Shown piece by piece: positions 3,896 to 46,690 of a DNA stretch of 64,000 nt (positions are counted from its first letter, which is position 1; each line of letters begins with the position of its first letter). Origin of the DNA: Alphaproteobacteria bacterium (GTDB lineage: Bacteria; Pseudomonadota; Alphaproteobacteria; CAAHEQ01; UBA3637); assembly GCA_015062245.1 (NCBI GenBank), contig SUVA01000002.1, positions 25,234 through 89,233 of the forward strand. The letters are read 5' to 3'. A program made the position numbers and the translations under genes. The notes under the pieces were generated by a model, which saw nothing but the letters and a program-made list of their open reading frames with translations, was not told the origin of the DNA and did not search any database.

Positions 3896-6151
3896 CTAAA
3901 TGTTCTTTTTTAAATTGGCGATTTGGGTGTTTGGGATATTTTCACCCGATTGAATTTTGGATACGATTGTTTGAACCTGTTCGGGGGTATAATGTTGATG
4001 GACAAAGTCAATGCGGTAAAAATCGCTTTGAACTTGTTCACGCAATTTTCCCATATAAAAAGGTTTACTTGAAATCAAGGTTAAAGCACAGTCTTTAATT
4101 TTTGCCCAATAAGAATCTGTTGCTTTTTTAATTGGAATAAAACAGGTTTGTTTTTGACAGTGTTTACAATTGTTTTTTATACAGTTGGCACTTTGGAATA
4201 AAGGAATATCCTGATAAACAACAGCCACGGTACTTATCGGACTTTTGTCATTGACGGCCATCATATTTTCCATTGTGTCCTCTATGGGTAAAGTAATACG
4301 TGAGGCGTTCATTTTCTGTGCCATTAAAACGGCTTGACTGTTCATGGTATAAAAGGCGTTGTCAAAGCTTAAATCAATACCCTTTTCGGGCAAAACATTT
4401 AATCCCCAAGGATTGCCAATTTCCCATTTACGATAGCCCAAGTTCAATAAATCTTTGATGATTTTATGGAAATTTTGTGAATTTCGGGCAATACTGGGTA
4501 AAGCCAAACGTACTTTGTTTTTGGGCAGTTTTTTAATCTGTTCAATGTTTATATCTGGGGTTAAAAGAACAATCACTTCATGAAAGGTTGATAAATCTGT
4601 TTGATTCAGGCAAATTAAATTATCCGTTTTTATCAGCCACTTTGTTGGTTGTTTTTTTCTGGGCTTTGGATTTTGAAGTTCTGTCTGTTTTTCTTTGATT
4701 TCAATGCGTTCATATAAATCACGGCGCAATTGATTTAAAACGGATGCCGGCACAAATAAACCATTGTTGTTTTCAATTTTGATATTTGGTTTAAAGTCGG
4801 TATCTTTATATTTTAAAAAGGCCTGTAAAACACTGTCATGGGCTTTTTGCGGATTTTGGGCCACATCAAAATGGCCATTTGATACAACCGATTGCCCACA
4901 GGCCGAAGCCGTTATTTTATCCGTTTCAATTTGAACCATTACATCAATGGGGTATCGGATTTTAAATTCATTGGGCTTTGGCTTTTCGTAATGATAGGTG
5001 GCTTTTACCTGACCGCTGGATGCCAAATAAATTTGCGTTCCTTTATCAATAAAGGGTGCGTTGTTCGGCAATTGTACTTGTACTTTTTGATGCGCTTTTG
5101 CTTCAAAAACCTGCCGACCGTTTGATATAATTTCCTGCACCGAAAAGCCAAAAGGTTTTTCCGTTCCCGGTATATCCAATTGCAAACCGTCATATTTTGA
5201 AAAAGAGTGCTTTGGGGTGAAGGTCATATATTGTTTGAAAACTTTTTCAGCCTGTCCGATGGGCAATCCTCTGTGTCCCACAAAATCGGTATCAATGATA
5301 TCATTGTTTTTGCCCAACAAATGAAAGGTTGTCCATGGGCGTGAAAAGATTTGTTTAATGTTTTCAGCTTTTGATTTATCCGCCCCTTTACCATCCAAGA
5401 TATGGCGATAATAATCCACAACGGCCGCCACATATAAATCTTTTTTCTTGCGTCCTTCTATTTTTAAAGAACAGATGGGTAATTTTAAAATATGTTCTTG
5501 CAACGCCATATCTTTCATGGAAAATAAATGAGCCTTTTTTTCGCCCCATTGGAATAAAGCGCGACACGGATAGGCACATTTGCCACGGTTGGCACTGCGC
5601 CCCGATTCTATGGATGAAAATTGGCACAAACCGCTGTAGGCATAACACAAAGCCCCATGCACAAAAATTTCAATTTCCAAATCCTTAATGGTGGCAATTT
5701 TTTCAATTTCGGGTAAAGTCAATTCTCGGGCCAAAACAACCCGTGTAAAGCCTAATTTTTTTAAAGCCAAAGCCCCGTCCACATTATGAACGGCCATTTG
5801 TGTGCTGGCATGCAGTTTTAAATTCGGATAGTGTTCTTTGATGATATGGGCCACACCGATGTCTTGCAAGATTATACCGTCCACTTGACAGGTATTACAA
5901 ACATCCAAAGTTCGCATCAATTCATCCAATTCTTTTTCCTGAATCAATGTATTGATGGTCACATAAACACACTTGTTTAAATGATGTGCATAGGCGGTCA
6001 ATTCGCTGAGTTGTTCGGGTGTAAAGTTGGTGGCGTTGGCACGTGCTGAAAAAGATTTTAAACCCAAATAAACGGCATCTGCCCCATAATAAAAGGCGGC
6101 ATACCCTGCATCTAAATCACCGGCCGGTGCCAAAAGTTCGTGTTTTTTCAT
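3896..6151 (-). CDS. peptidase U32 family protein (long form)
   Basis: U32 collagenase-like N-terminal domain (ELLAPAG...GADAVY...CAYPCR cysteines); start placed at MKKHELL ATG 6151; ~750 aa is long for the family. Confidence 0.8.
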   Translation of the reverse strand: MKKHELLAPAGDLDAGYAAFYYGADAVYLGLKSFSARANATNFTPEQLSELTAYAHHLNKCVYVTINTLIQEKELDELMRTLDVCNTCQVDGIILQDIGVAHIIKEHYPNLKLHASTQMAVHNVDGALALKKLGFTRVVLARELTLPEIEKIATIKDLEIEIFVHGALCYAYSGLCQFSSIESGRSANRGKCAYPCRALFQWGEKKAHLFSMKDMALQEHILKLPICSLKIEGRKKKDLYVAAVVDYYRHILDGKGADKSKAENIKQIFSRPWTTFHLLGKNNDIIDTDFVGHRGLPIGQAEKVFKQYMTFTPKHSFSKYDGLQLDIPGTEKPFGFSVQEIISNGRQVFEAKAHQKVQVQLPNNAPFIDKGTQIYLASSGQVKATYHYEKPKPNEFKIRYPIDVMVQIETDKITASACGQSVVSNGHFDVAQNPQKAHDSVLQAFLKYKDTDFKPNIKIENNNGLFVPASVLNQLRRDLYERIEIKEKQTELQNPKPRKKQPTKWLIKTDNLICLNQTDLSTFHEVIVLLTPDINIEQIKKLPKNKVRLALPSIARNSQNFHKIIKDLLNLGYRKWEIGNPWGLNVLPEKGIDLSFDNAFYTMNSQAVLMAQKMNASRITLPIEDTMENMMAVNDKSPISTVAVVYQDIPLFQSANCIKNNCKHCQKQTCFIPIKKATDSYWAKIKDCALTLISSKPFYMGKLREQVQSDFYRIDFVHQHYTPEQVQTIVSKIQSGENIPNTQIANLKKNI

Positions 6152-6176
6152 AAAAGATATTATACTATAACACCCC

Positions 6177-7304
6177 TTAAAAGTCAATTGCTTCTTGTTT
6201 TTTGGGGGTTAAATGAATCAATGTGATTTCGGCCGGTGCGAATAATCTGACCTGAGGTCCCCAATGGCCTGTGCCACGGGATACATAGATTTTGGCTTTG
6301 TCCATCATATTATACAGGCCAGCCAAATAACGATGGTTGGTGTAAGAGCTGAACAAATGAAACGGCCAAATTTGTCCACCATGGGTATGACCCGAAATTT
6401 GTAATTCAAAGGGCTTTTTTTTGAATTCCCCCGGTGTATGGCTTAATAAAACTTTAAATTGATTTTTTGTGGCCCGTTTAAAAGTCCGCACCAAATCAAT
6501 TTTTTTGCCCAATTTTTTCCACGATTGCCAATCGGCCACGCCACCGATATATAAATCATCATCCAAAGAACGGCCTTTATGATCCAAAACATGAAAGCCC
6601 AAATCCAAAAACTGACGGATGCATTTTTTATAGCCGATATAAAATTCGTGATTACCACTGACGGCAAAAACACCTTTTGAGGCCTTTAATTGTTTCAACA
6701 GCCCGATTTTGTTTTGAATACGTTCTGTTTTATCATCAATGGTATCCCCCACCAATAACACCGCCAAAGGATTTGTTTTATTTGTGCGCGCCACAATCTT
6801 TTTGATTTTTTTATCCAAAGTATTGCGTGTGATATGCAAATCCGTTAAAACAGCCAAAGTTTTTTCCTGTAAAATTTTATTGGATTCAATGAAGACTTCT
6901 TTTACATTCGGCACACGGGAACCTTGATAAAGGGCCCATGAAATCATGATACAGGCGATGAAAAAAGTCAAAGCATTGACATTGTTGATATTGGTAAAAA
7001 TGGATGGGAAAGAGGGGATAAACCAATCCAATCCCAACCATATTAAATCACGCAAAACGGTCAGCGAACTTAAAAAAAAGATAAAGACAAAAATTGTATT
7101 GCATATATGGTTCATCCAGTATCCCGCTTTTTTATAAAGCGGTAACAGGGGGTGCATAGCCAATAAGGGGGCCAAACACAACCCGATACACAACATGACA
7201 GGGTGTTCGCCGGCCATTGGTGTCAGGACAAAATAACGCATAAAAACGATACTGCCCCAACACAGGCTGAACCCACACATCAATAAGGACACCCAAACAT
7301 TCAT
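6177..7304 (-). CDS. membrane-anchored calcineurin-like metallophosphoesterase
   Basis: N-terminal TM helices plus GDxxD, GNHE and GHTHGGQ phosphoesterase motifs; paralog of 10851..11945. Confidence 0.8.
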   Translation of the reverse strand: MNVWVSLLMCGFSLCWGSIVFMRYFVLTPMAGEHPVMLCIGLCLAPLLAMHPLLPLYKKAGYWMNHICNTIFVFIFFLSSLTVLRDLIWLGLDWFIPSFPSIFTNINNVNALTFFIACIMISWALYQGSRVPNVKEVFIESNKILQEKTLAVLTDLHITRNTLDKKIKKIVARTNKTNPLAVLLVGDTIDDKTERIQNKIGLLKQLKASKGVFAVSGNHEFYIGYKKCIRQFLDLGFHVLDHKGRSLDDDLYIGGVADWQSWKKLGKKIDLVRTFKRATKNQFKVLLSHTPGEFKKKPFELQISGHTHGGQIWPFHLFSSYTNHRYLAGLYNMMDKAKIYVSRGTGHWGPQVRLFAPAEITLIHLTPKKQEAIDF

Positions 7305-13306: not shown

Positions 13307-14047
13307 TTAATCATCCTTGTTTGTTTTTTTGTTTGAAATGATTTGGTGAAACTGAATTAAAGCAATGGCGAACAGTAAGGGCAAAATTGCCTCACCAAAT
13401 TCTTCCAAAATTCTGAAAGCAAATCGGATGGGTTCATCCAATTGTTTGCCATAATGTTTGGCGTATTTTGACGGAAAGCGATCACAAAATTGTGTTGCAA
13501 TACCTAAGCCCCCAAAAGTCGCTATTGTCCAATAAAACGGTTCACGTTTGAAAAACCCGACAAACATTTTTTTAAAGTTTTTAATCAATAACCATAATAT
13601 TATTGATACCACTGATAAAATCAAAAATCCTGAAATAATTTTTTCATGCAAAGGATTGTTCGGGTTTGTGAAAAAACGGATTTTTATGGCGGTTGTATCG
13701 TGTTGGGTCAACCAATGTTGTAATCCCATTTCTCTTAACAGGGCAATCAACCACAAAAATACCAATGCCAAAAATGTTTTTTGCCTGGGGGTGTTTATGT
13801 AATCTTTTGCATATAAGATAACAGCAATAAAAGAAACAAAGTAACATAAGTAAGTTGTAACTTCGGAAACACCTGTTTTTTCAACGTCAAAAACACCCAA
13901 AAAACTGCGGAATAAATAGCAGGATGCAAAAAAGATAGTCAACAAAACGGCACTGAATATAGGTGAAAATGCATAATTTTGTATGCCGTATTTGTTTTTA
14001 TAAGTAATTGTTTTTGTTGCCATTTTTGTTCCTTTCATAAAAAGCAC
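13307..14047 (-). CDS. hypothetical integral membrane protein
   Basis: Multi-TM hydrophobic ORF, no recognizable family. Confidence 0.45.
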   Translation of the reverse strand: MLFMKGTKMATKTITYKNKYGIQNYAFSPIFSAVLLTIFFASCYLFRSFLGVFDVEKTGVSEVTTYLCYFVSFIAVILYAKDYINTPRQKTFLALVFLWLIALLREMGLQHWLTQHDTTAIKIRFFTNPNNPLHEKIISGFLILSVVSIILWLLIKNFKKMFVGFFKREPFYWTIATFGGLGIATQFCDRFPSKYAKHYGKQLDEPIRFAFRILEEFGEAILPLLFAIALIQFHQIISNKKTNKDD

Positions 14048-14115
14048 ATAACATTTTATGTTAAAAATTTTAAAAAGTCAATTTATCTTTATTTGTTTTG
14101 TTTTTGTAAAATGTC

Positions 14116-14144
14116 TTGCATTTAAAAAAAAAGTGGAGTATAAT
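14116..14144 (+). promoter_or_regulatory. sigma70-type promoter of tRNA-Pro (TTGCAT-17 bp-TATAAT)
   Basis: -35 TTGCAT 14116-14121, 17-nt spacer, -10 TATAAT 14139-14144, about 9 nt before the mature tRNA 5' end. Confidence 0.6.
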
Positions 14145-14153
14145 AGGCACATT

Positions 14154-14230
14154 CGGAGTGTAGCGCAGCCTGGTAGCGCACTTGTCTGGGGGGCAAGGTG
14201 TCGTGGGTTCAAATCCCGCCACTCCGACCA
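14154..14230 (+). tRNA. tRNA-Pro (anticodon GGG)
   Basis: Manual cloverleaf: acceptor CGGAGTG/CACTCCG, D-arm GCGC-AGCCTGGTA-GCGC, anticodon loop CTGGGGG, T-arm GTGGG-TTCAAAT-CCCGC, encoded CCA. Confidence 0.88.
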
Positions 14231-14404
14231 CTAAACACAAACGCCGAAAAATCGGCGTTTTTTCTTTTATTTTCAAGCACTTGCAAGAGTTCGAATGTTG
14301 AAAGCTAAAAAACAGCCATTTTCTTGAATTTACGAACTCTGGAACCAAAAAATCCTTATTTTTCAATACCTATCCATCGGGAAGCTAAAACTACTATCCC
14401 AGAA
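14221..14404 (+). repeat. cassette repeat R1 (contiguous with genuine tRNA-Pro 3' end)
   Basis: Shares ACTCCGACCACTAAACACAA, hairpin, GTTCGAAT, CAGCCATTTTC..TTTACGAACTCT..CCAAAAAATCC..CAATAC..GGGAGCTAAAA..TCCCAGAAA blocks with R2-R4. Confidence 0.8.
14241..14266 (+). terminator. rho-independent terminator after tRNA-Pro (also first element of repeat R1)
   Basis: acgccgaaaaatcggcgt hairpin followed by TTTTTTC. Confidence 0.6.
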
Positions 14405-14406
14405 AT

Positions 14407-15156
14407 TTACAACTTTTTATATATACTCATAACATGAGTAGAACAACCTATCATATCTGGACGTTCTGCTATCTGTAATTGTATTTGTTTGATTTTATTA
14501 AAGCTTGTTTTATCTAACTTATTTGTATATTCTTTTAATATTTCAAACAAGCCATCCAAGGATACATCGGATATGTGTTTTAATTTCGTCTTAGAAACCA
14601 GTTTGTGAAAGTCATTTACAAAATATGTTTCATAGATATCTTTTTCTACATGCTTTTTCTTAAAAGCGTTATAATTACCCTTTATCAATCCAAAACGGTA
14701 AATTATCGGTGTATTGGTTAGATAGTTAAATAACACTATTCCATTTTTCATACATATTCTATATGCTTCTTTAATTGCTTGAATTTTCTCATCTTCTTTA
14801 AATAAATGGGAGATAGGGCCATTTACAAAGACCACATCAAAGCAATCCGATTTTATAGATTTTAATTTTACAATATCACCACATAAAGTATCAAAATTAG
14901 AAGTTTTAATGCGTTTTGAAAGTCTATCCAAATTTTCTTGAAATAAATCTATCGCTGTAACGTGTTTTGCAAATTTAACTATCTCCGGCGAATAAGACCG
15001 AATTCCGGCTCCAATTTCTGCAACAGAGTTATGTTTCTTAATATACTTTTTTAGATAGTTAATTGTTACAAATCGTTCTAATAAAACATTGTTTTCTTCA
15101 ATTTTTTCACTTTTATTGCGTGTTTTATAAAACTTATATAGATTTTCTTTATCCAT
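14407..15156 (-). CDS. class I SAM-dependent methyltransferase (cassette 1)
   Basis: Motif I VAEIGAGIRSY, downstream D/E and VVFVNGPISH motif IV-like. Confidence 0.75.
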   Translation of the reverse strand: MDKENLYKFYKTRNKSEKIEENNVLLERFVTINYLKKYIKKHNSVAEIGAGIRSYSPEIVKFAKHVTAIDLFQENLDRLSKRIKTSNFDTLCGDIVKLKSIKSDCFDVVFVNGPISHLFKEDEKIQAIKEAYRICMKNGIVLFNYLTNTPIIYRFGLIKGNYNAFKKKHVEKDIYETYFVNDFHKLVSKTKLKHISDVSLDGLFEILKEYTNKLDKTSFNKIKQIQLQIAERPDMIGCSTHVMSIYKKL

Positions 15157-15211
15157 GATATACTCCCTTTAGAGCAGTTCTATCACAAATGGTATAAAAA
15201 AGCAATATCAA

Positions 15212-15416
15212 AGTTCGTGAATTGCGCATCCGTTCCGACCACTAAACACAAAGCATCAGAAATGGTGCTTTTTTATTTATTTTACAAGGTGTTGTGCGGG
15301 TTCGAATCTCCAACCGTCAAAATCAGCCATTTTCTTGAATTTACGAACTCTGGAACAAAAAAGTCCTTTAAAATCAATATAGGAAGTCTGGGAGCTAAAA
15401 TTACTGTTCCAGAAAA
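15212..15416 (+). repeat. cassette repeat R2
   Basis: Begins AGTTCGTGAATTGCGCATCCGTTCCGACCACTAAACACAA (degenerate tRNA T-arm/acceptor 3' half); same block order as R1. Confidence 0.8.
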
Positions 15417-15422
15417 AATGGC

Positions 15423-15451
15423 TTGACTTTCCTTATCTTTATATGTAAACT
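15423..15451 (+). promoter_or_regulatory. candidate sigma70 promoter for NUDIX/HAD cassette (TTGACT-17-TAAACT)
   Basis: Located directly after R2; AAGGAG RBS at 15472 and ATG at 15484 follow. Confidence 0.4.
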
Positions 15452-15483
15452 GGTTCTAGATTTTTCTAAAAAAGGAGTTTTAA

Positions 15484-15912
15484 ATGTCTGAAAATACTGT
15501 TTTTGTGGGATGTGGTGTTATTTTGCTTAACTCAAAAGGTCAATTTTTAATGATGAAACGCACCAGTAAACACGGGCAAGGGACTTGGGGCTTACCTGGT
15601 GGGCACATGGAATTTGGTGAAACATTTGAAACAGTGGCTATTCGTGAGGTTTCTGAAGAATTAGGTATTGAAATTCATAATCCGCACGTTTTAGGCGTTA
15701 CCAACAACTTCTTTCCAAATGAAAACAAGCATTCTGTTAGTATTATTTTGATTGCAAGGTTAGAAAATCAAGAACCAAAGAACATGGAACCACATAAATG
15801 TTCAGAATTGCGTTGGTGTGACGATTGGGAACATTTACCGGCTCCTGTTTTTATCCCTTATAATAAGTATATTTCCTTAAAACAAATAAGAGAATATTTT
15901 GAAAGTAAATAG
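15484..15912 (+). CDS. NUDIX hydrolase (cassette 2)
   Basis: NUDIX box GGHMEFGETFETVAIREVSEELGI. Confidence 0.85.
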   Translation: MSENTVFVGCGVILLNSKGQFLMMKRTSKHGQGTWGLPGGHMEFGETFETVAIREVSEELGIEIHNPHVLGVTNNFFPNENKHSVSIILIARLENQEPKNMEPHKCSELRWCDDWEHLPAPVFIPYNKYISLKQIREYFESK

Positions 15913-16615
15913 CCATATTCCGAATTTAAAGACCAAAACACATCTGATTTTTGATTTAGATGGGACCTTGATTGATTCTTTAAATATCTGGAATGTCATT
16001 GATCAGGCTGTTTTAAAAGGCCTAAACATTGTTGTCCCTTTGGATATTCTTCAACAAGAGCATACGATTTTTTTTAAAAAAGAAAATAGCTATATTCATT
16101 ATGCACAATTTTTAATTAAAAATCATCACTTAGAAATTACACCAGAAGAATTTCTGAAGATGCGTTGGCAAATAGCAGATAGCATTTTAACAGAACAAGT
16201 TGATTTTAAAAATGGTGTTGTAAAGATCCTTAAAAAATTAAAAGAACAATATGTACTTATATTAGCAACCAGCTCTACAAAACATATTCTATCGATTTAT
16301 GCACACCAAAATCAAAAAATGGCAAAAAGGTTATGTTTAGAAACTTTCTTTGATATGATATTGACACAGGAGGATATTCCTTTTGGAAAGGGAAAGCCTG
16401 AACCAGATATTTATTTGACTGTTCTGAAAAAATATTCTGTTAAACCTGAAAAATGCCTTATTTTTGAAGATTCATTGGAGGGTGTACAAGCCGCTTATCA
16501 CTCTGGCATAGATGTCATTCATGTAAATGATCCATTTATTCCTTTTGAGGATAAAAAATCAATACAGAAATATACCCCTTATCATTTGAAGAAATGGTCA
16601 GATTTTAAGATATAA
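15899..16615 (+). CDS. HAD-superfamily hydrolase (beta-phosphoglucomutase-like; cassette 2)
   Basis: Motif I LIFDLDGTLIDS; 14-nt overlap with NUDIX gene suggests an operon. Confidence 0.8.
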   Translation: MKVNSHIPNLKTKTHLIFDLDGTLIDSLNIWNVIDQAVLKGLNIVVPLDILQQEHTIFFKKENSYIHYAQFLIKNHHLEITPEEFLKMRWQIADSILTEQVDFKNGVVKILKKLKEQYVLILATSSTKHILSIYAHQNQKMAKRLCLETFFDMILTQEDIPFGKGKPEPDIYLTVLKKYSVKPEKCLIFEDSLEGVQAAYHSGIDVIHVNDPFIPFEDKKSIQKYTPYHLKKWSDFKI

Positions 16616-16625
16616 AATATTTTCT

Positions 16626-16832
16626 GAGCTCGTGAATTGCGCATTCATTCCGACCACTAAACACAAGTCGTCTCAAAAGGCGACTTTTTCTTTATTTTAC
16701 AAGCACTTATAAAAGTTCGAATGTTCAACTGTCAAAATTGGCTATTTTCAGCCATTTACGAACTCTTGAACCAAAAAATCCTTATTTTTCAATACTTGTC
16801 CTCTGAGAGTTCCAAACTACCATCCCAGAAAA
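16626..16832 (+). repeat. cassette repeat R3
   Basis: GAGCTCGTGAATTGCGCATTCATTCCGACCACTAAACACAA + hairpin gtcgtctcaaaaggcgac + conserved blocks. Confidence 0.8.
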
Positions 16833-16900
16833 TAGGTAATATTTTCAAATTTGTTTACAATATTATTGCTATTTTTGAAATAACATAGTATTCTAACCAT

Positions 16901-18562
16901 ATGTTAAGGCCTATAAAAGATTTTTTTATATTACAAATATTAAAAAAGAATAAAACACAGTTACAATTTCTTCTGCTCTTTTTGATGTTCTTCTTTTCTG
17001 TTTTGCAAGTGTATACTGAACCAGTACTTTTTAATGTTTGTTTTCTTTCTTTTTTTGCATTTGTTTGGTTTCTATTAGCGATAAAAAGACAGGTTATTTT
17101 TACTTTATATTTTTTTCTTGTTTTTTCCCCTGGATGCCTGCACTTCGTCTACCAACTTATATTTCGTCATCCAATAGATGATGCATCCATTGAGCAGGTA
17201 TTCATCTCTAATATTGCAATTAGTTTTGCTTTTTTAAAATCTCATCCTATATTGCTATGTTGTATTCCGTTAATTTTACTGCTTTTTGTACTTTTTTCGC
17301 ATATTTCGCATTTAATTGCTTCTCTCCAAATTTCATCCAGTAAGTACATACGTTTTTTAAGTACGTTGATGCTTTTGTGGCTAATAGTATTTTTATTGTT
17401 CTCTCATGGAAGTATATATCGTGTTGTCTTTGACGGATATCTTTCCTATAAAGCCGACTGTGCTTTTGTAGCGGATATAGTTGAAAAAAAACTCAACACT
17501 ACTTTTTCAAATGTAAAAATATCAGAGGATCAAACGGTTATTGTCGTGATAGGGGAATCCGAAACAAGAACGATGTTATCCTTGTATGGATATCAAAAAG
17601 ATACAACACCCCATTTATCTGACTTAAAAGATAAACTGATTGTTTTTTCTGATGTGTTCTCTCCACATTCCCATACAGCGACTGTTTTGGACAAAGCTTT
17701 ATCCCTAAAATCATTTAGTGACACTCCGAATAATTTTGGATCTGTTATTGATTTGTTTTCTCAAGCAGGGTTTGAAGTCTGGTGGCTTTCAACTCCACCT
17801 TTAAGAGACGTATGGTCTGGTTCAACAATGGCTATTTTATCAAATGCTGCACATCATAAATTTTTTCTAAATAAAGGTATATCATGGGATAGACATGACA
17901 TTGACTTATTACCAAAAATCAAAGAAGCAATTCTTCAACCCACTCCCAAAAAATTAATTTTTGTACATTTATTAGGGAGTCATGGAGCATATACGGATAG
18001 ATATCCAGAATCATTACGACGTCTTGATTTGACACCATATGAGAATACTATTTATTCAACAGATTACTTTATGAATGAAATAATCAATTTTTTAGAAAAA
18101 GAAAATATAAAAAACACGAAACTTCTTTATTTTTCGGATCATGGTGATGCACCACAGTGTCAATGTCATACAGAAGCGTTAGGATATCCAGAAATGTTTG
18201 AAGTCCCTTTTTATCTTTGGCTCAGTCCTGATATTAGAAATAAGTTTAAGTTAAATAAAGATATGCTTACAAAACCCTATAATACAGAACATTTGATTCA
18301 CTCGATTGCTGATTTGGCAAAAATTTCATCGGATGAAATTGATATACAAAAAAGCATTTTTAATCAAAATAGGAGAGGATTATATATTATGTTAGATGGT
18401 AAAAAATATGCTATTTCTTCGGATTTAATCTTTGAAGTTTCTCATCCTATAACAAGAGGAAAGGTAGTTGATTTTTCTGAGCATTACTTAAAAATCAAGT
18501 GGTATTCTTCTGGTGAGATAGAAACATGGGAAAATAAAAATTCAATTTGGCAAAAAATATAA
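16901..18562 (+). CDS. sulfatase-family membrane protein, phosphoethanolamine/phosphoglycerol transferase (EptA/OpgB)-like (cassette 3)
   Basis: Five N-terminal TM helices followed by alkaline-phosphatase/sulfatase-fold domain (VIGESETR.., DHGD motifs). Confidence 0.7.
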   Translation: MLRPIKDFFILQILKKNKTQLQFLLLFLMFFFSVLQVYTEPVLFNVCFLSFFAFVWFLLAIKRQVIFTLYFFLVFSPGCLHFVYQLIFRHPIDDASIEQVFISNIAISFAFLKSHPILLCCIPLILLLFVLFSHISHLIASLQISSSKYIRFLSTLMLLWLIVFLLFSHGSIYRVVFDGYLSYKADCAFVADIVEKKLNTTFSNVKISEDQTVIVVIGESETRTMLSLYGYQKDTTPHLSDLKDKLIVFSDVFSPHSHTATVLDKALSLKSFSDTPNNFGSVIDLFSQAGFEVWWLSTPPLRDVWSGSTMAILSNAAHHKFFLNKGISWDRHDIDLLPKIKEAILQPTPKKLIFVHLLGSHGAYTDRYPESLRRLDLTPYENTIYSTDYFMNEIINFLEKENIKNTKLLYFSDHGDAPQCQCHTEALGYPEMFEVPFYLWLSPDIRNKFKLNKDMLTKPYNTEHLIHSIADLAKISSDEIDIQKSIFNQNRRGLYIMLDGKKYAISSDLIFEVSHPITRGKVVDFSEHYLKIKWYSSGEIETWENKNSIWQKI

Positions 18563-18575
18563 ATTTATTTGCTCT

Positions 18576-18783
18576 GAGTTCGTAAATTGCGCATTCACTC
18601 CGACCACTAAACACAAAGCATCAGAAATGGTGCTTTTTTCTTTATCTTACAAGGCCTTGTTCGGGTTCGTATGTTCAACTGTCAAAATCAGCCATTTTCA
18701 ACCATTTACGAACTCTTGAGTCAAAAAATCCTTTGTTTTCAATACCTGTCCCTTGGGAGCCTAAAACATAAATCCCAGAAAAT
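18576..18783 (+). repeat. cassette repeat R4
   Basis: GAGTTCGTAAATTGCGCATTCACTCCGACCACTAAACACAA; hairpin identical to R2 (agcatcagaaatggtgct). Confidence 0.8.
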
Positions 18784-18822
18784 AGACCTAAAAATTTAAT
18801 TTATTTTTCCTTACAAAATATG

Positions 18823-18851
18823 TTGACATTAGCGTGATTTTTTGATTAAAT
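18823..18851 (+). promoter_or_regulatory. candidate sigma70 promoter (TTGACA-17-TTAAAT) for small cassette ORF
   Basis: Consensus -35 and acceptable -10 with 17-nt spacing directly after R4. Confidence 0.4.
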
Positions 18852-18884
18852 GAAATCATTATCAATTTTAGTGAAAGGAAAAAA

Positions 18885-19100
18885 ATGTTTAATAATCGAC
18901 CTCGAGTAAGGGTTGCTTTTTCAAAAAAGTCTATTCAAAAGATAAAAGAAGCAATAGAAAATCTTAACTCTTTGCAACCAGTTTTACCCCTTCCTAAAAA
19001 AGAGTCAACCAGAGAAGAATGGCTAGAAAGACAACATAAAATTTTATCTTATCAACCTCCACGTCCTGTATCTTTTAGGGGTAGACAAAGGGGTGAATAA
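18885..19100 (+). CDS. hypothetical small protein (cassette 4)
   Basis: 71-aa ORF with GGA-rich RBS region, bounded by R4 and partial R5; no homology recognized. Confidence 0.3.
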   Translation: MFNNRPRVRVAFSKKSIQKIKEAIENLNSLQPVLPLPKKESTREEWLERQHKILSYQPPRPVSFRGRQRGE

Positions 19101-19123
19101 TTTTCATGTAAAACGGTTGGACT

Positions 19124-19160
19124 AAGCTCGTAAATTGTACATCCATTCCGACTATTCTTT
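19124..19160 (+). repeat. truncated cassette repeat R5 (tRNA-3'-end-like part only)
   Basis: AAGCTCGTAAATTGTACATCCATTCCGACTATTC aligns to the first 35 nt of R2-R4. Confidence 0.6.
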
Positions 19161-19214
19161 CTAAGAATAATTAAACTTACAGATAAATTCTCTTGAAAAA
19201 AAGAAAGGAATAAA

Positions 19215-19781
19215 ATGAAAATAGAATGGAAAATTGATAAGTTATTAGCACCTTTACCAGCTGCGCTAGTTTCGTGTGGAACGATGAAAAAAGCGAACGT
19301 TTTAACTGTTTCGTGGACAGGTTTTTTAAACTCTGAACCGTTGATGACCTATGTTGCTATTCGACCTTCTCGCTATTCGTATCGTTTAATTAAACGTGGC
19401 AAAAGTTTTGTTATTAATATTCCTAATAAAAAATTATTACACTGCGTAGATGTATGCGGTCTTAAAAGTGGTAAAGATACAGATAAATTTGCTGAATGTG
19501 GCATAACAGCCGTTGAAAGTAAGATGGTTTCTGCGCCGTCTATTTTAGAGTGTCCTATTTCTATAGAGTGTGAAGTTTGTGATATTTTAAAAAATCCATC
19601 ACATGATGCTTTTATTGCAAAAGTGAAAACTATTACTATAGACGATCAATATATGGAGGGTCGCAAATTTAATTTTGTTAAGGCCGGTTTGATAATGTCG
19701 GCACATCGACAATACTTTGAAGTGGGTGATTTTTTAGCTGATACTTTCTATACAGCACAAGAAAATTCTAAGAGTAAATAA
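19215..19781 (+). CDS. flavin reductase-like (NADH:FMN oxidoreductase, HpaC/RutF family) protein (cassette 5)
   Basis: Flavin_Reduct domain pattern (LVSCGT...NVLTVSW...P...VAIRPSRYS). Confidence 0.75.
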   Translation: MKIEWKIDKLLAPLPAALVSCGTMKKANVLTVSWTGFLNSEPLMTYVAIRPSRYSYRLIKRGKSFVINIPNKKLLHCVDVCGLKSGKDTDKFAECGITAVESKMVSAPSILECPISIECEVCDILKNPSHDAFIAKVKTITIDDQYMEGRKFNFVKAGLIMSAHRQYFEVGDFLADTFYTAQENSKSK

Positions 19782-19886
19782 TATAATTGAAAATCTATGT
19801 CAACTATGAAATAAGCTTTTGTAATTTGCGCAAAAGTAAATCTTTGGATTTTACAAAGTATCAATTGGCGTATGGGAAGAAAGTTT

Positions 19887-20339
19887 TTACTTTTTTTGCT
19901 TATTTCTTTCGGAAAGAGAGTTTTCGTATTTTTCAAAATTTTTAAAAAGAAATATTGTTGGGAAAATCAAAAGAAATATACCCAAAATGATAAGAGGTAA
20001 GGCAAATTTTTCCGGAAACGTTTTTATATGGGAAATGAAATAAAAAAAGATTGTTAAACTGCCCAAAAAAGTTAAAATTTCAGCTGCCAGGTAAAAGTTT
20101 CTGCGACGAATTTCTTCCCATGATTTCCCGAATAAAAGCGGAGTATGACGATATGTGGCAAGGTTTCTGCTCATTAAAGAGAAAAAGAGAAAAATTGGAT
20201 AAAAAGGAATGAATATCCAACCAAAAATATAAATTATTTTATCCGCCCAATTTTTTTTAATAATTTTTTCCCGATGTGTATTAAAAAACGGACCTATAAG
20301 CCAAAGCAAATATATTAGTATTAATAATAAAAACTTCAT
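19887..20339 (-). CDS. hypothetical membrane protein
   Basis: Four predicted TM segments; 4-nt overlap with upstream small ORF, likely co-transcribed downstream of gyrA. Confidence 0.4.
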   Translation of the reverse strand: MKFLLLILIYLLWLIGPFFNTHREKIIKKNWADKIIYIFGWIFIPFYPIFLFFSLMSRNLATYRHTPLLFGKSWEEIRRRNFYLAAEILTFLGSLTIFFYFISHIKTFPEKFALPLIILGIFLLIFPTIFLFKNFEKYENSLSERNKQKK

Positions 20340-20542
20340 TGTTTCTTCTTTTTATGCTTACATTTTTCGCAGGTGCATTTGATATGCTCTTCTTGGCAGT
20401 GCTGATGTTCGGCACTTTGGCACACATTACAGTTTTTGTGGTGGTGCTTTAATTTATTTTTTAACCACTTTTTCGGCCCCTTTAATAACAGCAAGGGGAA
20501 CAATAAAATCGCCACAGTACAACAAAACGGACAAGGACACAT
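20336..20542 (-). CDS. small Cys/His-rich protein (putative metal-binding)
   Basis: 68 aa with CPCPFCC, HHH, CNVC, HQHC, CTCEKC clusters and Lys-rich tail; starts 2 nt after gyrA stop. Confidence 0.35.
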   Translation of the reverse strand: MCPCPFCCTVAILLFPLLLLKGPKKWLKNKLKHHHKNCNVCQSAEHQHCQEEHIKCTCEKCKHKKKKQ

Positions 20543-23736: not shown

Positions 23737-25941
23737 CTAGTTCATCCAACTGCAATCGTTTACCTTGTTTACAATGGACATATCTGTGCTTCCCGCAGAA
23801 CCGCAATAATACAGGTTTTGAATTGTACCAGTGTAAAAACCTTGACAATATGCTTTTTTACTTCCTTGCAGATAGGCATTGGTTATGTTACCCGGTGTGG
23901 AAGCTATTATACAATTACATTCTCCACAACTGGCAAGACCATACTCTCCCCCATAAGCAATCAAAGTGCCAATTGTTGCTTCCCCATACACATTGTATAA
24001 TCCACCATTTTTAATCTCTATTTTAGAAGCCTGTAAAGAACCATCGTTTTGCAAGTTTCCTTTTTCTATTTCTATATTTGTTGCTTCCAATGTTTTGACA
24101 GTACTGTATATGCTGTTTGAATTGAGTATACATGTTTCAGGGGTGAAAACTCCACCTGCTGCTGTTATTGGCCCTGAAAAAATTGAACATGTTATATTTT
24201 TTGCAGAGAGTTTTCCTGAATTGTCTAATCCTTTGGCAGCTTTTACATTTATTTTATTTGTTGCAGTTATTGTTCCTGTGTTTCTTATTGCATAAAGATC
24301 TTTGGATAGATTTCCTGTTTCAAAACTTTCTTCTTCCCCCACTACAGTGATATTGTCGGAATTGATTGTTCCGTAATTTGTAATTCCAACGTTAATCATT
24401 TGAGCACTTGCATCTATATCGGAAATATTTAAAGTTCCTCTGTTAATTATTGAAGCATTCGTGGTAAGAGAATCCGAATAAATTGTTCCGTAGTTTTGAA
24501 CAGAATAAGCATTGTCGTTATTACCATCACTTCTTATAAGAATACTATTGACTTTTAAGGTTTTTCCTTCTGACACTGATACCTGCAGAACAGATTGATC
24601 GGAAAATGATAATTTGCATTCGGAAATGTCTAAATCTTTTTCGACGTTTAATCTGCCGTTATATTTTATGGTTTCATTATCTTTCATTAAAAATGTTCCG
24701 TTGGTCCCCGAACTTTCTTTGTCGAGAACATAACCAGCATCAAGCATTTTCAAACAACATTGATTTTCACCGCATCCATCGTCTTCAACGCAATTATTTC
24801 CATCCAGTTTATAACCTTTTTCACATTTTATCGGCAACCCGCTTTCGTTGCACTCCGTCACATTTGCACCACAAGGCGTGCAGGTATTTCCATTTAAATA
24901 ATAGCCAGTTTGACAGGCTGTTGGTTTGCCCGTTGAATCACAGCTGAGCACACCTGTACCACAGGATGTGCAAGAATTTCCATTTTTATAATAGCCGGCT
25001 TGGCAGGTAAAGCCATTTGAAGTACAACTAGCCACACCTGTTGTCGGACATTGAACACAAGAATTACCGCTTAAATAATAACCACTTTTACAAGAGGTTG
25101 GTTTGCCCGTTGAATCACAGCTGGCCACACCTGTGCCACAGGATGTGCAAGAATTTCCATTTTTATAATAGCCGGCTTGGCAGGTAAAGCCATTTGAAGT
25201 ACAACTAGCCACACCTGTTGTCGGACATTGAACACAGGAATTTCCATTTAAATAATACCCCTCTTCACATTCTGTCGGATTGCCATTTTCATCACAAGTA
25301 ACGACACCTGTGCCACAGGAAGTGCAAGTATTACCGTTTTTATAATATCCTGATTCGCATTCAAATCCATCGTCTTTGCAATCCATACTGTTCTCTGGGC
25401 ATTCAATACAATTACCATTTGACAAAAAATACCCGTCAACACAACCTATCGGATTAAAATCACTGTCGCAAACGGCGTTCGCCGGACATTCCCGAGGTTG
25501 ACTATCTTTATCCGGTGTTGTTGATGAATCGGCCTCAGGAAACTTTAAAAAATAAAAGGTAACATTGCTGGTTGATTCACATTCGTCTTTTGTATATCCG
25601 GCACCTATATCAAATTCAGTCAAAACCCCACACAAAGAAGAACTATTCGTTTTTACATCAATCCAAAACCAATCTTTGTTTTTATCACCAACCCCATTTT
25701 CAATCGTAAATATCGTATCGTAGGGACCTTTTTCCGTTCGTGGCATCCGTTCACCGGCATGCGCATTCATAGAAAGTAAGCGAGAATTTTTAATAGCTGT
25801 CAATCTTTGGGCCAATGTATGGGTTTGGCTTTCCAATCTGGCCTCTTGCCACAGACGAATACCAGCCACCGTAATCAATGCAATAATAACCAATACGGAT
25901 AAAACTTCTAATATTGAACGGCCAAATTGTGCTTTTTTCAT
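23737..25941 (-). CDS. type IV pilin-like N-terminus / Cys-rich GYY-CxxC repeat / beta-helix-like large surface protein
   Basis: GGAG RBS; leader MKKAQFG|RSILEVLSVLVIIALITVAG with G(-1) and E(+5); 59-aa tandem Cys-rich repeats (CxxC..GYYxNGNxC); C-terminal NxGT(I/L)-type repeats; paralog of 30944..33169. Confidence 0.75.
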   Translation of the reverse strand: MKKAQFGRSILEVLSVLVIIALITVAGIRLWQEARLESQTHTLAQRLTAIKNSRLLSMNAHAGERMPRTEKGPYDTIFTIENGVGDKNKDWFWIDVKTNSSSLCGVLTEFDIGAGYTKDECESTSNVTFYFLKFPEADSSTTPDKDSQPRECPANAVCDSDFNPIGCVDGYFLSNGNCIECPENSMDCKDDGFECESGYYKNGNTCTSCGTGVVTCDENGNPTECEEGYYLNGNSCVQCPTTGVASCTSNGFTCQAGYYKNGNSCTSCGTGVASCDSTGKPTSCKSGYYLSGNSCVQCPTTGVASCTSNGFTCQAGYYKNGNSCTSCGTGVLSCDSTGKPTACQTGYYLNGNTCTPCGANVTECNESGLPIKCEKGYKLDGNNCVEDDGCGENQCCLKMLDAGYVLDKESSGTNGTFLMKDNETIKYNGRLNVEKDLDISECKLSFSDQSVLQVSVSEGKTLKVNSILIRSDGNNDNAYSVQNYGTIYSDSLTTNASIINRGTLNISDIDASAQMINVGITNYGTINSDNITVVGEEESFETGNLSKDLYAIRNTGTITATNKINVKAAKGLDNSGKLSAKNITCSIFSGPITAAGGVFTPETCILNSNSIYSTVKTLEATNIEIEKGNLQNDGSLQASKIEIKNGGLYNVYGEATIGTLIAYGGEYGLASCGECNCIIASTPGNITNAYLQGSKKAYCQGFYTGTIQNLYYCGSAGSTDMSIVNKVNDCSWMN
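24958..25312. repeat. near-identical 177-bp tandem repeat (2 copies; diverged copies flank to ~24840-25340) inside pilin-like gene
   Basis: acaggatgtgcaagaatttccatttttataatagccggcttggcaggtaaagcc... recurs at 24961 and 25138 (period 177 bp = 59 aa). Confidence 0.85.
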
Positions 25942-46414: not shown

Positions 46415-46580
46415 GTTTTTTTATCACAGATTGGGGGGTGATTTTAAACAATTGAGGTATGTAATTTGGCTGACGCACAATTTATCCCTCATTATATTCG
46501 GGACCGCCTACGGCGTCCTGTCTACGGGACACGAATGCGTCCCTTGCCACCGGACTCGGCAAAAGGCTTGCAAACAAAAG

Positions 46581-46604
46581 AAAAAAACCTCATTTGATTG
46601 AGGG
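46581..46604 (-). terminator. rho-independent terminator of tRNA-Phe
   Basis: cctca-tttgat-tgagg hairpin followed by T7 on the minus strand, immediately 3' of the tRNA. Confidence 0.55.
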
Positions 46605-46614
46605 CTTTAAAAGA

Positions 46615-46690
46615 TGGTGCCTGGAGACGGAATCGGACCGCCGACACAGAGATTTTCAGTCTCTTGCTCTACCAACTGAGCTATCCAGGC
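46615..46690 (-). tRNA. tRNA-Phe (anticodon GAA)
   Basis: Reverse complement GCCTGGATAGCTCAGTTGGTAGAGCAAGAGACTGAAAATCTCT...GGTCCGATTCCGTCTCCAGGCACCA folds as a cloverleaf; anticodon loop CTGAAAA. Confidence 0.92.

Follow-up and report, generated by a model that had tools for sequence, protein, structure and literature searches.

The window analysed here is a stretch of 64,000 nt of contig SUVA01000002.1 from an alphaproteobacterial genome, and it contains an array of ~215-nt direct repeats behind a tRNA-Pro(GGG) gene. The segment 15212-15416 is R2, the second among four full repeats (R1-R4; 14197-14409, 15208-15420, 16623-16835 and 18573-18785) delimited by repeat search and alignment. A truncated copy (R5) and a relic (R6) lie in the same array. 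The repeat is probably an att-type junction site of mini gene cassettes that lack a recombinase and were serially integrated at tRNA 3′ ends by an enzyme supplied in trans. Such cassettes with a trans-acting enzyme are best read as gene capture of the kind known from staphylococcal cassette chromosome (SCC) elements or integrons. Four parts make up the repeat: a conserved P arm, G[CT]TCGTRAATTGCGCAT; a core of 6-8 nt; an intrinsic terminator with a covarying stem; and a spacing-invariant block that contains GAGTTCGAAT and its inverted copy.

Junctions at the tRNA 3′ end

In 6-7 independent cases, a partial copy of the repeat breaks off at model position 56, which is the final base of TCCGACCA. 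The right-hand partner of one P arm and core can be the standard module (the remainder of the repeat), an RtT-like element (type 2), a third insert type or unique sequence, the last resembling a native tRNA trailer with its terminator. These unrelated partners (at least three module types or unique flanks) join exactly after CCA. Terminal copies that consist of arm, core and unrelated flank, and thereby resemble attR, were found at R5 of the window and at L007, L014, L032, L039, L068 and L073, and all of them break at the CCA end. At tRNA-Pro arrays, ~35 copies have the core TCCGACCA. The 6 copies found in arrays at tRNA-Met, a tRNA with the end GCAACCA, have CCAACCA. The P arm does not change with the anchor, and its distance to the junction is always 12 nt. 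Because the arm is constant, the core follows its target and heterologous partners are joined at one position, a site-specific exchange in the last 6-8 nt of the tRNA is suggested.

These observations argue for a crossover within the tRNA 3′ end, and not in the GTTCGAAT motifs of the repeat, whose T-loop symmetry had been proposed as an integrase target in a sequence-only reading of the window. The same reading had proposed to check whether the junction variants always fall within the motif cores. The dominant class falls after CCA (TCCGACCA|); in a secondary and rarer class (n = 3), the junction lies exactly after GAGTTCG of motif 2 and is followed by a 91-nt insert. The 91-nt element (GTGGCAAGG...GCGTCAGCCAAATTACA) occurs in three unrelated contexts (L001 3546-3635, L036 942-1031 and window ~46470-46560 on the minus strand). 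The stem of its first hairpin differs in each copy with pairing kept, and the element had no Rfam match.

The copy in the window belongs to a diverged module (46440-46606, minus strand) after tRNA-Phe (46615-46690). This module comprises a trailer, a terminator and CTTTTGTTTGCAAG...GAGTCCG, with the 91-nt structured insert in place of motifs 2-3, followed by TTGACA-17-TACTAT and a low-GC gene of 233 aa. A mimic of the tRNA-Phe 3′ end was not found downstream of this module.

The array in the window

In the proposed mechanism, a circular cassette would consist of the P arm of ~30 nt, a further 4-5 nt, a core of 6-8 nt with the same sequence as the target tRNA 3′ end (TCCGACCA for tRNA-Pro), a P′ module of ~175-185 nt and one or two cargo genes under a promoter of their own. 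Recombination at the core would rebuild the tRNA, set the module directly behind it and displace earlier cassettes downstream. The start of the module, a short trailer and an intrinsic terminator, would end the tRNA transcript and insulate the cassette. The layout predicted from such serial integration, tRNA-core-module-cargo-[P-core-module-cargo]n-P-core-native flank, matches the window, where the following features were identified.

14154..14230, plus strand: tRNA-Pro(GGG), the anchor on the attB side (ARAGORN; Rfam tRNA, 59.8 bits)
14197-14409, plus strand: R1, attL-like junction, with the genuine T-loop GGGTTCAAATCC at 14205-14216, then the core
14223-14230, plus strand: core TCCGACCA, the last 8 nt of tRNA-Pro, shared with the repeats
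14231-14240, plus strand: R1 trailer CTAAACACAA
14239-14260, plus strand: R1 terminator hairpin, stem ACGCCG/CGGCGT
14287-14296 and 14328-14339, plus strand: R1 motif 2 GAGTTCGAAT and motif 3 ATTTACGAACTC
14377-14402, plus strand: R1 terminal GGGA/TCCC hairpin
14407..15156, minus strand: cargo of cassette 1, SAM-dependent methyltransferase of 249 aa (Pfam PF08241, E = 2.8e-12)
15208..15420, plus strand: R2, internal attP-like junction, with the P arm and motif 1 at 15211-15229 and the core at 15234-15241, then the trailer
15250-15271 and 15388-15412, plus strand: R2 terminator (stem AGCATC/GGTGCT) and terminal hairpin
15298-15307 and 15339-15350, plus strand: R2 motif 2 GGGTTCGAAT and motif 3 ATTTACGAACTC
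15423-15451: promoter-like TTGACT-17-TAAACT just inside cassette 2 (promoter scan)
15484..16615, plus strand: cargo of cassette 2, Nudix hydrolase (15484-15912) and HAD hydrolase (15899-16615) (Pfam)
16623..16835, plus strand: R3, internal junction, with the P arm at 16626-16644 and the core at 16649-16656
16665-16686 and 16803-16828, plus strand: R3 terminator (stem GTCGTC/GGCGAC) and terminal hairpin
16713-16722 and 16754-16765, plus strand: R3 motif 2 and motif 3
16901..18562, plus strand: cargo of cassette 3, membrane protein of the sulfatase/phosphoethanolamine-transferase family, 553 aa (PF00884, E = 1e-34)
18573..18785, plus strand: R4, internal junction, with the P arm at 18576-18594 and the core at 18599-18606
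18615-18636 and 18753-18778, plus strand: R4 terminator (stem AGCATC/GGTGCT, as in R2) and terminal hairpin
18663-18672 and 18704-18715, plus strand: R4 motif 2 and motif 3
18885..19100, plus strand: cargo of cassette 4, open reading frame (ORF) of 71 aa with no family match
19124..19154, plus strand: R5, truncated attR-like copy, P arm AAGCTCGTAAATTGTACAT and degenerate core TCCGACTA, then unrelated sequence
19215..19781, plus strand: flavin reductase-like gene between R5 and R6 (Pfam PF01613; GC 0.32)
19793..19832, plus strand: R6, relic with a degenerate extended P arm CTATGTCAAC...TTTGTAATTTGCGCA and no core

R1 overlaps the 3′ half of the genuine tRNA gene. The inserts are flanked by direct repeats of the tRNA end (TCCGACCA four times and a degenerate fifth), and tRNA-Pro is intact at one end. 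The 18-mer TCCGACCACTAAACACAA, which combines the tRNA 3′ end with the trailer, occurs exactly 4 times; its mean count in shuffled sequences was 0.07, and 4 copies were reached in 0 of 100 shuffles. R6 was found by local alignment to the extended P arms of L003, L017, L031 and L036, with a score that was reached in 0 of 500 shuffles. The flavin reductase-like gene is probably an older fifth cassette, judging from its low GC and the relic downstream.

The cassettes of the window have a GC content of 0.28-0.32 (0.28 for cassette 1, which extends over ~14410-15207), compared with 0.35-0.47 in the flanks. The array is surrounded by housekeeping genes (H+-PPase, gyrA, IF2, nusA, relA and secA). The genes upstream of it, encoding a membrane protein and an SNF transporter, differ between species. 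In one metagenome contig of the window's species (L056, 12-461), the Nudix cassette gene is split into ORFs of 75 aa and 54 aa, possibly because the population includes a pseudogenised variant or because the assembly is wrong there.

Conservation of the repeat

Conservation was assessed on an alignment of 47 non-redundant repeat copies from other genomes, in which the conservation of both search patterns is partly an ascertainment effect of the way the copies were found. Motif 2 (GGGTTCGAAT/AGTTCGAAT) is followed 41 nt downstream in the window by the inverted motif 3 (ATTTACGAACTC), the reverse complement of which, GAGTTCGTAAAT, equals motif 1 of R4 at the start of the tRNA mimic. The motifs and their spacing are kept across the aligned copies. 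The distance from the P arm to the end of the core is 27 nt in 22/22 copies, that from the core to motif 2 is 57 nt in 43/48 copies, and motifs 2 and 3, which read GTTCGAA and TTCGAAC, stand 40 nt apart in 43/48 copies. This spacing holds despite ~20% sequence divergence of the copies. The module is built of invariant blocks that alternate with variable blocks occurring as discrete alleles of equal length. A protein-DNA assembly would be expected to fix the spacing and leave the spacer sequence free, and motifs 2 and 3 are plausible protein-binding sites. The 12-mer GAGTTCGTAAAT, common to the P arm and to the direct and inverted copies in the block, would be the putative binding sequence. The P arm differs from the true tRNA by insertions and deletions, but is itself kept across species.

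The hairpin behind the core is paired at 98.8% over nine base pairs in the 47 copies, with double compensatory changes at four pairs. These values for pairing and covariation were reached in 0 of 1000 column shuffles, and slid controls gave 30-55% pairing. The copies fall into at least five stem alleles, hence the number of independent covariation events is small. The hairpin and its T-run were called an intrinsic terminator in all four window copies (4/4). The stem formed by motifs 2 and 3 and the terminal GGGA/TCCC stem are invariant and show no covariation above chance in the 47 copies, and are thus conserved as sequence, not demonstrably as structure.

The anatomy given in the sequence-only reading was borne out in full. 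Every repeat opens with a degenerate copy of the T-arm/acceptor 3′ half of the tRNA, the stems of the hairpin differ between copies while remaining paired (R2 being the same as R4), and the three motifs lie in the orientation +,+,-, in the window as in the copies elsewhere. The hairpin, described there as terminator-like and under selection for its structure, is an intrinsic terminator (a stem with a T-run) and does not speak for a recombination structure. The view that the repeats are not passive duplications is favoured by the attL-like, internal and attR-like pattern of serial integration, by the shuffling of the cassettes and by the co-variation of the core with the anchor tRNA. R5 and R6 had been overlooked.

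Other roles for the repeat were examined and rejected. In the search for a structured RNA, Rfam found the tRNA alone in the array (window 13500-20500), and RNAalifold gave the terminator, the invariant motif 2/3 stem and a GGG/CCC stem, with covariation in the terminator only. A small protein encoded by the repeat was dismissed because no frame is open in more than 23 of the 47 copies and the hairpin alleles would alter the peptide completely. Single-strand hairpin sites of the IS200/IS605 or integron type were also set aside: by eye, the P-arm variants show no conserved pairing, and motifs 1 and 3 do not covary.

Cassette expression

Cassettes on the strand opposite to the tRNA carry a near-consensus promoter, TTGACA-17-TAnAAT, starting 9-12 nt from the P arm in 8/12 cases, and cassettes with unrelated cargo conserve its sequence. 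In co-oriented cassettes, TTGAC[TA] is often present 5-17 nt behind the module. Own promoters combined with the terminator make each cassette a self-contained, terminator-insulated expression unit. A promoter within the module itself (TTGAAG-17-TCAATA) was rejected, having a poor -10 element and no call in the promoter scan; the real promoter-like sites lie just inside the cassettes.

Modules related to the repeat are also found after tRNA-Pro(CGG), tRNA-Met, tRNA-Glu and tRNA-Phe genes, sometimes beside housekeeping genes such as recA. The type-2 tRNA-flank element includes a terminator of its own and closes with a near-perfect tRNA-Pro 3′ end, AAATCCCGCCGCTCCGACCA. It was located at the following positions.

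L014 5409-5526, minus strand: type-2 element
L041 3137-3276 and 4624-4764: type-2 elements
L003 ~6800-6900: type-2 element
L048 2917-3020: type-2 element
L067 4037-4170: type-2 element

The element of L014 aligns with the full length of RtT (RF00391), at a weak 27.2 bits that is below the gathering score of 45 (E = 0.0024 in a 351-nt search). These features recall a tRNA-linked module for expression or processing, that is, an RtT-like flank element duplicated to insulate or regulate accessory genes and with no role in mobility. The structural selection on the terminator and the promoters at fixed positions just within the cassette boundaries would suit such a module, as would its occurrence behind several tRNA genes. 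However, the repeats of the window have no Rfam match, RF00391 in particular giving none in 13500-20500 at E ≤ 1, and the P arm is kept beside opposite-strand cassettes, where it lies outside the transcript. Duplication also leaves the unique cargo, the linkage of the core to the tRNA and the linkage to a recombinase unexplained. An expression module without mobility is therefore very unlikely to be the full account, and the junction-site reading is kept in what follows.

Distribution and turnover of the cassettes

An exact search with the 18-mer recovered 13 species-level metagenome-assembled genomes (MAGs) labelled Alphaproteobacteria, from rumen, goat, sheep, yak and human gut. All 13 have tRNA-Pro(GGG), and several show 2-4 matches per 8-kb block. 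A pattern from the far end of the repeat matched 24 metagenome contigs, many of which terminate at the repeat, as would happen if assemblies broke at such repeats. Chance matches of the 18-mer in contigs of Acidobacteriota, Virgibacillus, Alloprevotella, Acaryochloris and Avamphibacillus were discarded, none of them containing the repeat. A phage origin was likewise rejected, as viral_contigs gave no match to either of the two repeat patterns or to the recombinase described below.

In these 13 MAGs and 24 contigs, the repeat stands in arrays of 2-5 copies behind tRNA-Pro(GGG), as mapped by profile searches. Between species, the DNA aligns only at the tRNA and the repeat (blastn, 70-89% identity); the array flanks are non-syntenic and contain mostly different gene families. 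The distinct cassettes (n = 40) have a median length of 766 nt (range 294-1732) and a mean GC of 0.32, and 36/40 contain a single ORF. Their genes are oriented as the tRNA in 27 cases and opposed to it in 15. The cargo is miscellaneous, including GNAT, ASCH, Dam, Ham1, LemA, glycosyltransferases, binding proteins, a Y-family polymerase and many unknowns.

Homologous cassettes (F1, F2, F10/F13, F16, F20, F29 and F32) occur at different array positions and with different neighbours across genomes. For example, F2 is first in L045 and L050, internal in L017 and last in L014, and F1 is preceded by F13 in L005 and by F2 in L045. In L017, the repeat between F2 and F1 is deleted, and the deletion begins inside motif 1. 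F29 and F32 are bounded by repeats in L036 and L043, but lie within a repeat-poor 13-kb island in UBA3768.

A low-GC island of 13 kb without internal repeats lies between two repeats at L015 and L019 (contig DFFU01000013.1, 16.9-30.3 kb). Its genes are homologues of cassettes that are bounded by repeats elsewhere (F15, F29, F32 and Nudix). This suggests that junction repeats decay and that cassettes fuse into a conventional island.

Candidate recombinase

The window and its surroundings, from ~3.5 kb on the left to ~5 kb past the right end, contain no annotated recombinase. Among ~75 ORFs in and around the other arrays, of which 57 were compared with Pfam, 8 with PHROGs and the rest by precomputed Pfam assignments, no recombinase family was found, contig L067 being the sole exception. 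The ~40 cassettes contain no recombinase remnant. A recombinase hidden among the unannotated cassette proteins was rejected, since these had no Pfam or PHROGs match.

Contig L067 was reached through a homologue search with cassette F1, and its array segment holds a large serine recombinase with resolvase, recombinase and zinc-ribbon domains, the catalytic domain matching the TP901-1 integrase. The recombinase element ends with a canonical P arm and TCCGACCA. Two homologues were found from the protein alone. The gene in L068 (74% identity) is followed by GTTCGTGAATTGCGCACAGTGCTCAACCA 60 nt past its stop codon, and the gene in L073 (70% identity) by GCTCGTGAATTGCACACAAAGCCTCGCCA ~25 nt past its stop codon. 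Thus, in 3/3 loci, a member of this clade (70-75% identity) is followed by a P arm and a tRNA-like core, then by a trailer with terminator. The cores at L067, L068 and L073 resemble the ends of tRNA-Pro, tRNA-Met and tRNA-Glu, respectively. A degenerate 17-mer of the P arm and core type would not be expected by chance. The clade is the best candidate for the trans-acting enzyme, its gene standing in the cargo position, directly upstream of P arm and core, of what would be an autonomous member of the family.

A conserved ORF of 58 aa lies directly upstream of the serine recombinase (L067 638-814, L068 5486-5662 and L073 371-547). The ORF terminates in AAATCCCAGAAAAnAGyTCGTAAATT, a sequence in which the normal module end runs directly into the beginning of the P arm. 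The ORF could encode a directionality or regulatory factor, or be the trace of cargo replacing a recombinase gene. In the same L067 array, a transposase of an rve-family insertion sequence (6147-7166, minus strand) is inserted directly 3′ of a P arm and core.

The 3′ ends of tRNA genes are classical targets of tyrosine integrases. The exchange may be site-specific and still depend on such an integrase, supplied from another genomic locus or by a helper element, with the serine recombinase elements as passengers at a hotspot. An identity block of 6-8 bp is typical of the overlap region of tyrosine recombinases, and the long arm with two direct motifs and one inverted motif resembles arm-type sites. 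Yet no PF00589-type protein was seen in any locus examined, and the large serine recombinase is the only recombinase repeatedly linked to the P arm, which makes a tyrosine integrase improbable.

Evidence against cassette integration

Several observations weigh against integration of the cassettes by a serine recombinase in trans. There is no recombinase in the window or in a 94.8-kb contig of the same species. The link to the recombinase comes from three short metagenome contigs, none of the window's species, and homologues at a greater distance (41% identity) lack the P arm. For known large serine recombinases, an attP of ~50 bp without a long arm is sufficient; none is known to require an arm of 185 nt. 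An informal check by eye revealed no clear dyad symmetry around the core, and the module types share no conserved sequence on the right of the core. The system may still be active, but every same-species contig retrieved (18 and 10, from different samples) has an identical array, and no excised circle, empty site, population polymorphism or other sign of current activity was seen. Finally, the modules are mosaics of allele blocks that do not co-segregate with the right-hand cassette, and modules linked to F2 are 73-77% identical. A module that travels with the cassette on its right is not supported on this ground. The mosaic modules therefore indicate that homologous exchange between modules also occurs.

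Homologous exchange might even account for the whole array. The ~215-bp repeats would then be portable homology, a RecA substrate for Campbell-type insertion of circles, cassette deletion and swapping after DNA uptake, with no dedicated enzyme. The lack of a cis-encoded recombinase in the cassettes, the mosaic modules with breakpoints in conserved blocks and the stability of the arrays within species agree with this. Such exchange would not make breakpoints recur precisely after CCA with non-homologous partners on the right, nor vary the core with the anchoring tRNA while the P arm stays constant. The truncated copies of P arm and core are not predicted by single-crossover insertion, and the P arm is conserved across species despite its insertions and deletions relative to the true tRNA. 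We consequently consider portable homology an unlikely explanation, and site-specific integration at the tRNA 3′ end remains our preferred reading.

Comparison with known systems

SCC elements are inserted in tandem at a conserved gene's 3′ end. Each is delimited by short direct repeats of this end, and members without a recombinase are served in trans (PMC7029136). The closest functional analogue of the array is provided by SCC and pseudo-SCC elements (CcrAB/CcrC, attB at the 3′ end of rlmH/orfX), which are arranged head to tail at a conserved gene end. They also depend on a recombinase of the large serine family that many members lack, which would apply to the array if the candidate enzyme is the right one. 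The array differs from SCC in its target, a tRNA gene (at least those for Pro and Met are used, probably also that for Glu), in its single-gene cassettes of 0.3-1.7 kb as opposed to tens of kb, in its repeat of ~215 nt with a terminator and conserved block as opposed to direct repeats of 18 nt, and in its alphaproteobacterial host.

Tycheposons, additive flexible genomic islands and accreting cis-mobilizable elements (CIMEs) grow in tandem at tRNA genes (bioRxiv 10.1101/2020.12.28.424599; PMC4119200; PMC5704250). As in the array, partial tRNA copies separate successive inserts, older inserts are pushed inward, and decayed or integrase-less members persist. However, those elements normally carry, or recognisably once carried, a tyrosine recombinase, in contrast to the ~40 array cassettes without a remnant; their repeat is a partial tRNA only, whereas the array repeat runs 185 nt past the tRNA; and the candidate enzyme of the array is a serine recombinase.

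With integrons, the array shares small and mostly single-gene cassettes (GNAT, Nudix and methyltransferases), a conserved repeat of recombination type and an enzyme outside the cassettes. It differs from them in that no intI adjoins the array, the anchor is a tRNA 3′ end, and the cassettes have their own promoters and both orientations (27 versus 15). The repeat is also unlike the imperfect palindrome of attC with its GTTRRRY cores, motifs 2 and 3 being invariant and without covariation.

The RtT elements of the E. coli tyrT operon are reportedly repeats downstream of a tRNA, each with a copy of the tRNA 3′ end. RtT thus resembles the array in its mimic of the tRNA end downstream of a tRNA gene, but its units are contiguous, without cargo genes between them. 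None of the four systems fits the array as a family: intI and attC, tyrosine integrase remnants and an Rfam match are lacking, and the repeat is far longer than that of SCC.

A further-reaching possibility, which we put forward tentatively, is that the array represents a previously undescribed gene-capture platform of uncultured gut and rumen Alphaproteobacteria. It would use promoter-bearing single-gene mini-cassettes, several tRNA 3′ ends and a dedicated clade of large serine recombinases acting in trans. Its composite site of ~215 bp would combine a recombinase half-site, a tRNA-matched core, a terminator and the spacing-constrained GAGTTCGTAAAT block, and the platform would be integron-like with an independent origin. 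If so, a poorly known lineage of the gut and rumen would capture accessory genes singly by a modular system that combines features of integrons (tiny cassettes without a recombinase), of SCC (a serine recombinase in trans and a conserved gene 3′ end) and of tRNA-targeted islands. It would also provide a defined pair of recombinase and site, with a P arm, a core seemingly re-matched to tRNA ends and a small backbone with terminator and promoter. Such a platform would explain the assembly breaks at tRNA loci in these genomes and connect tRNA-linked repeats of the RtT type with mobile DNA.

Other observations in the window

A region of low GC (0.29-0.31) at 53000-56272 contains a gene for a multi-domain glycosyltransferase of 953 aa beside tRNA-Leu(TAG) (56189-56272, minus strand); no module was detected there. 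An ORF of 734 aa at 23737-25941 (minus strand), which has no Pfam match, contains a tandem repeat of 177 nt at 24886-25347 (2.6 copies, 86% matches). An ORF of 68 aa at 20336-20542 (minus strand), located between gyrA and the gene for a small membrane protein, encodes a Cys/His-rich and lysine-tailed product and is represented by a gene of 59 aa in the public contig.

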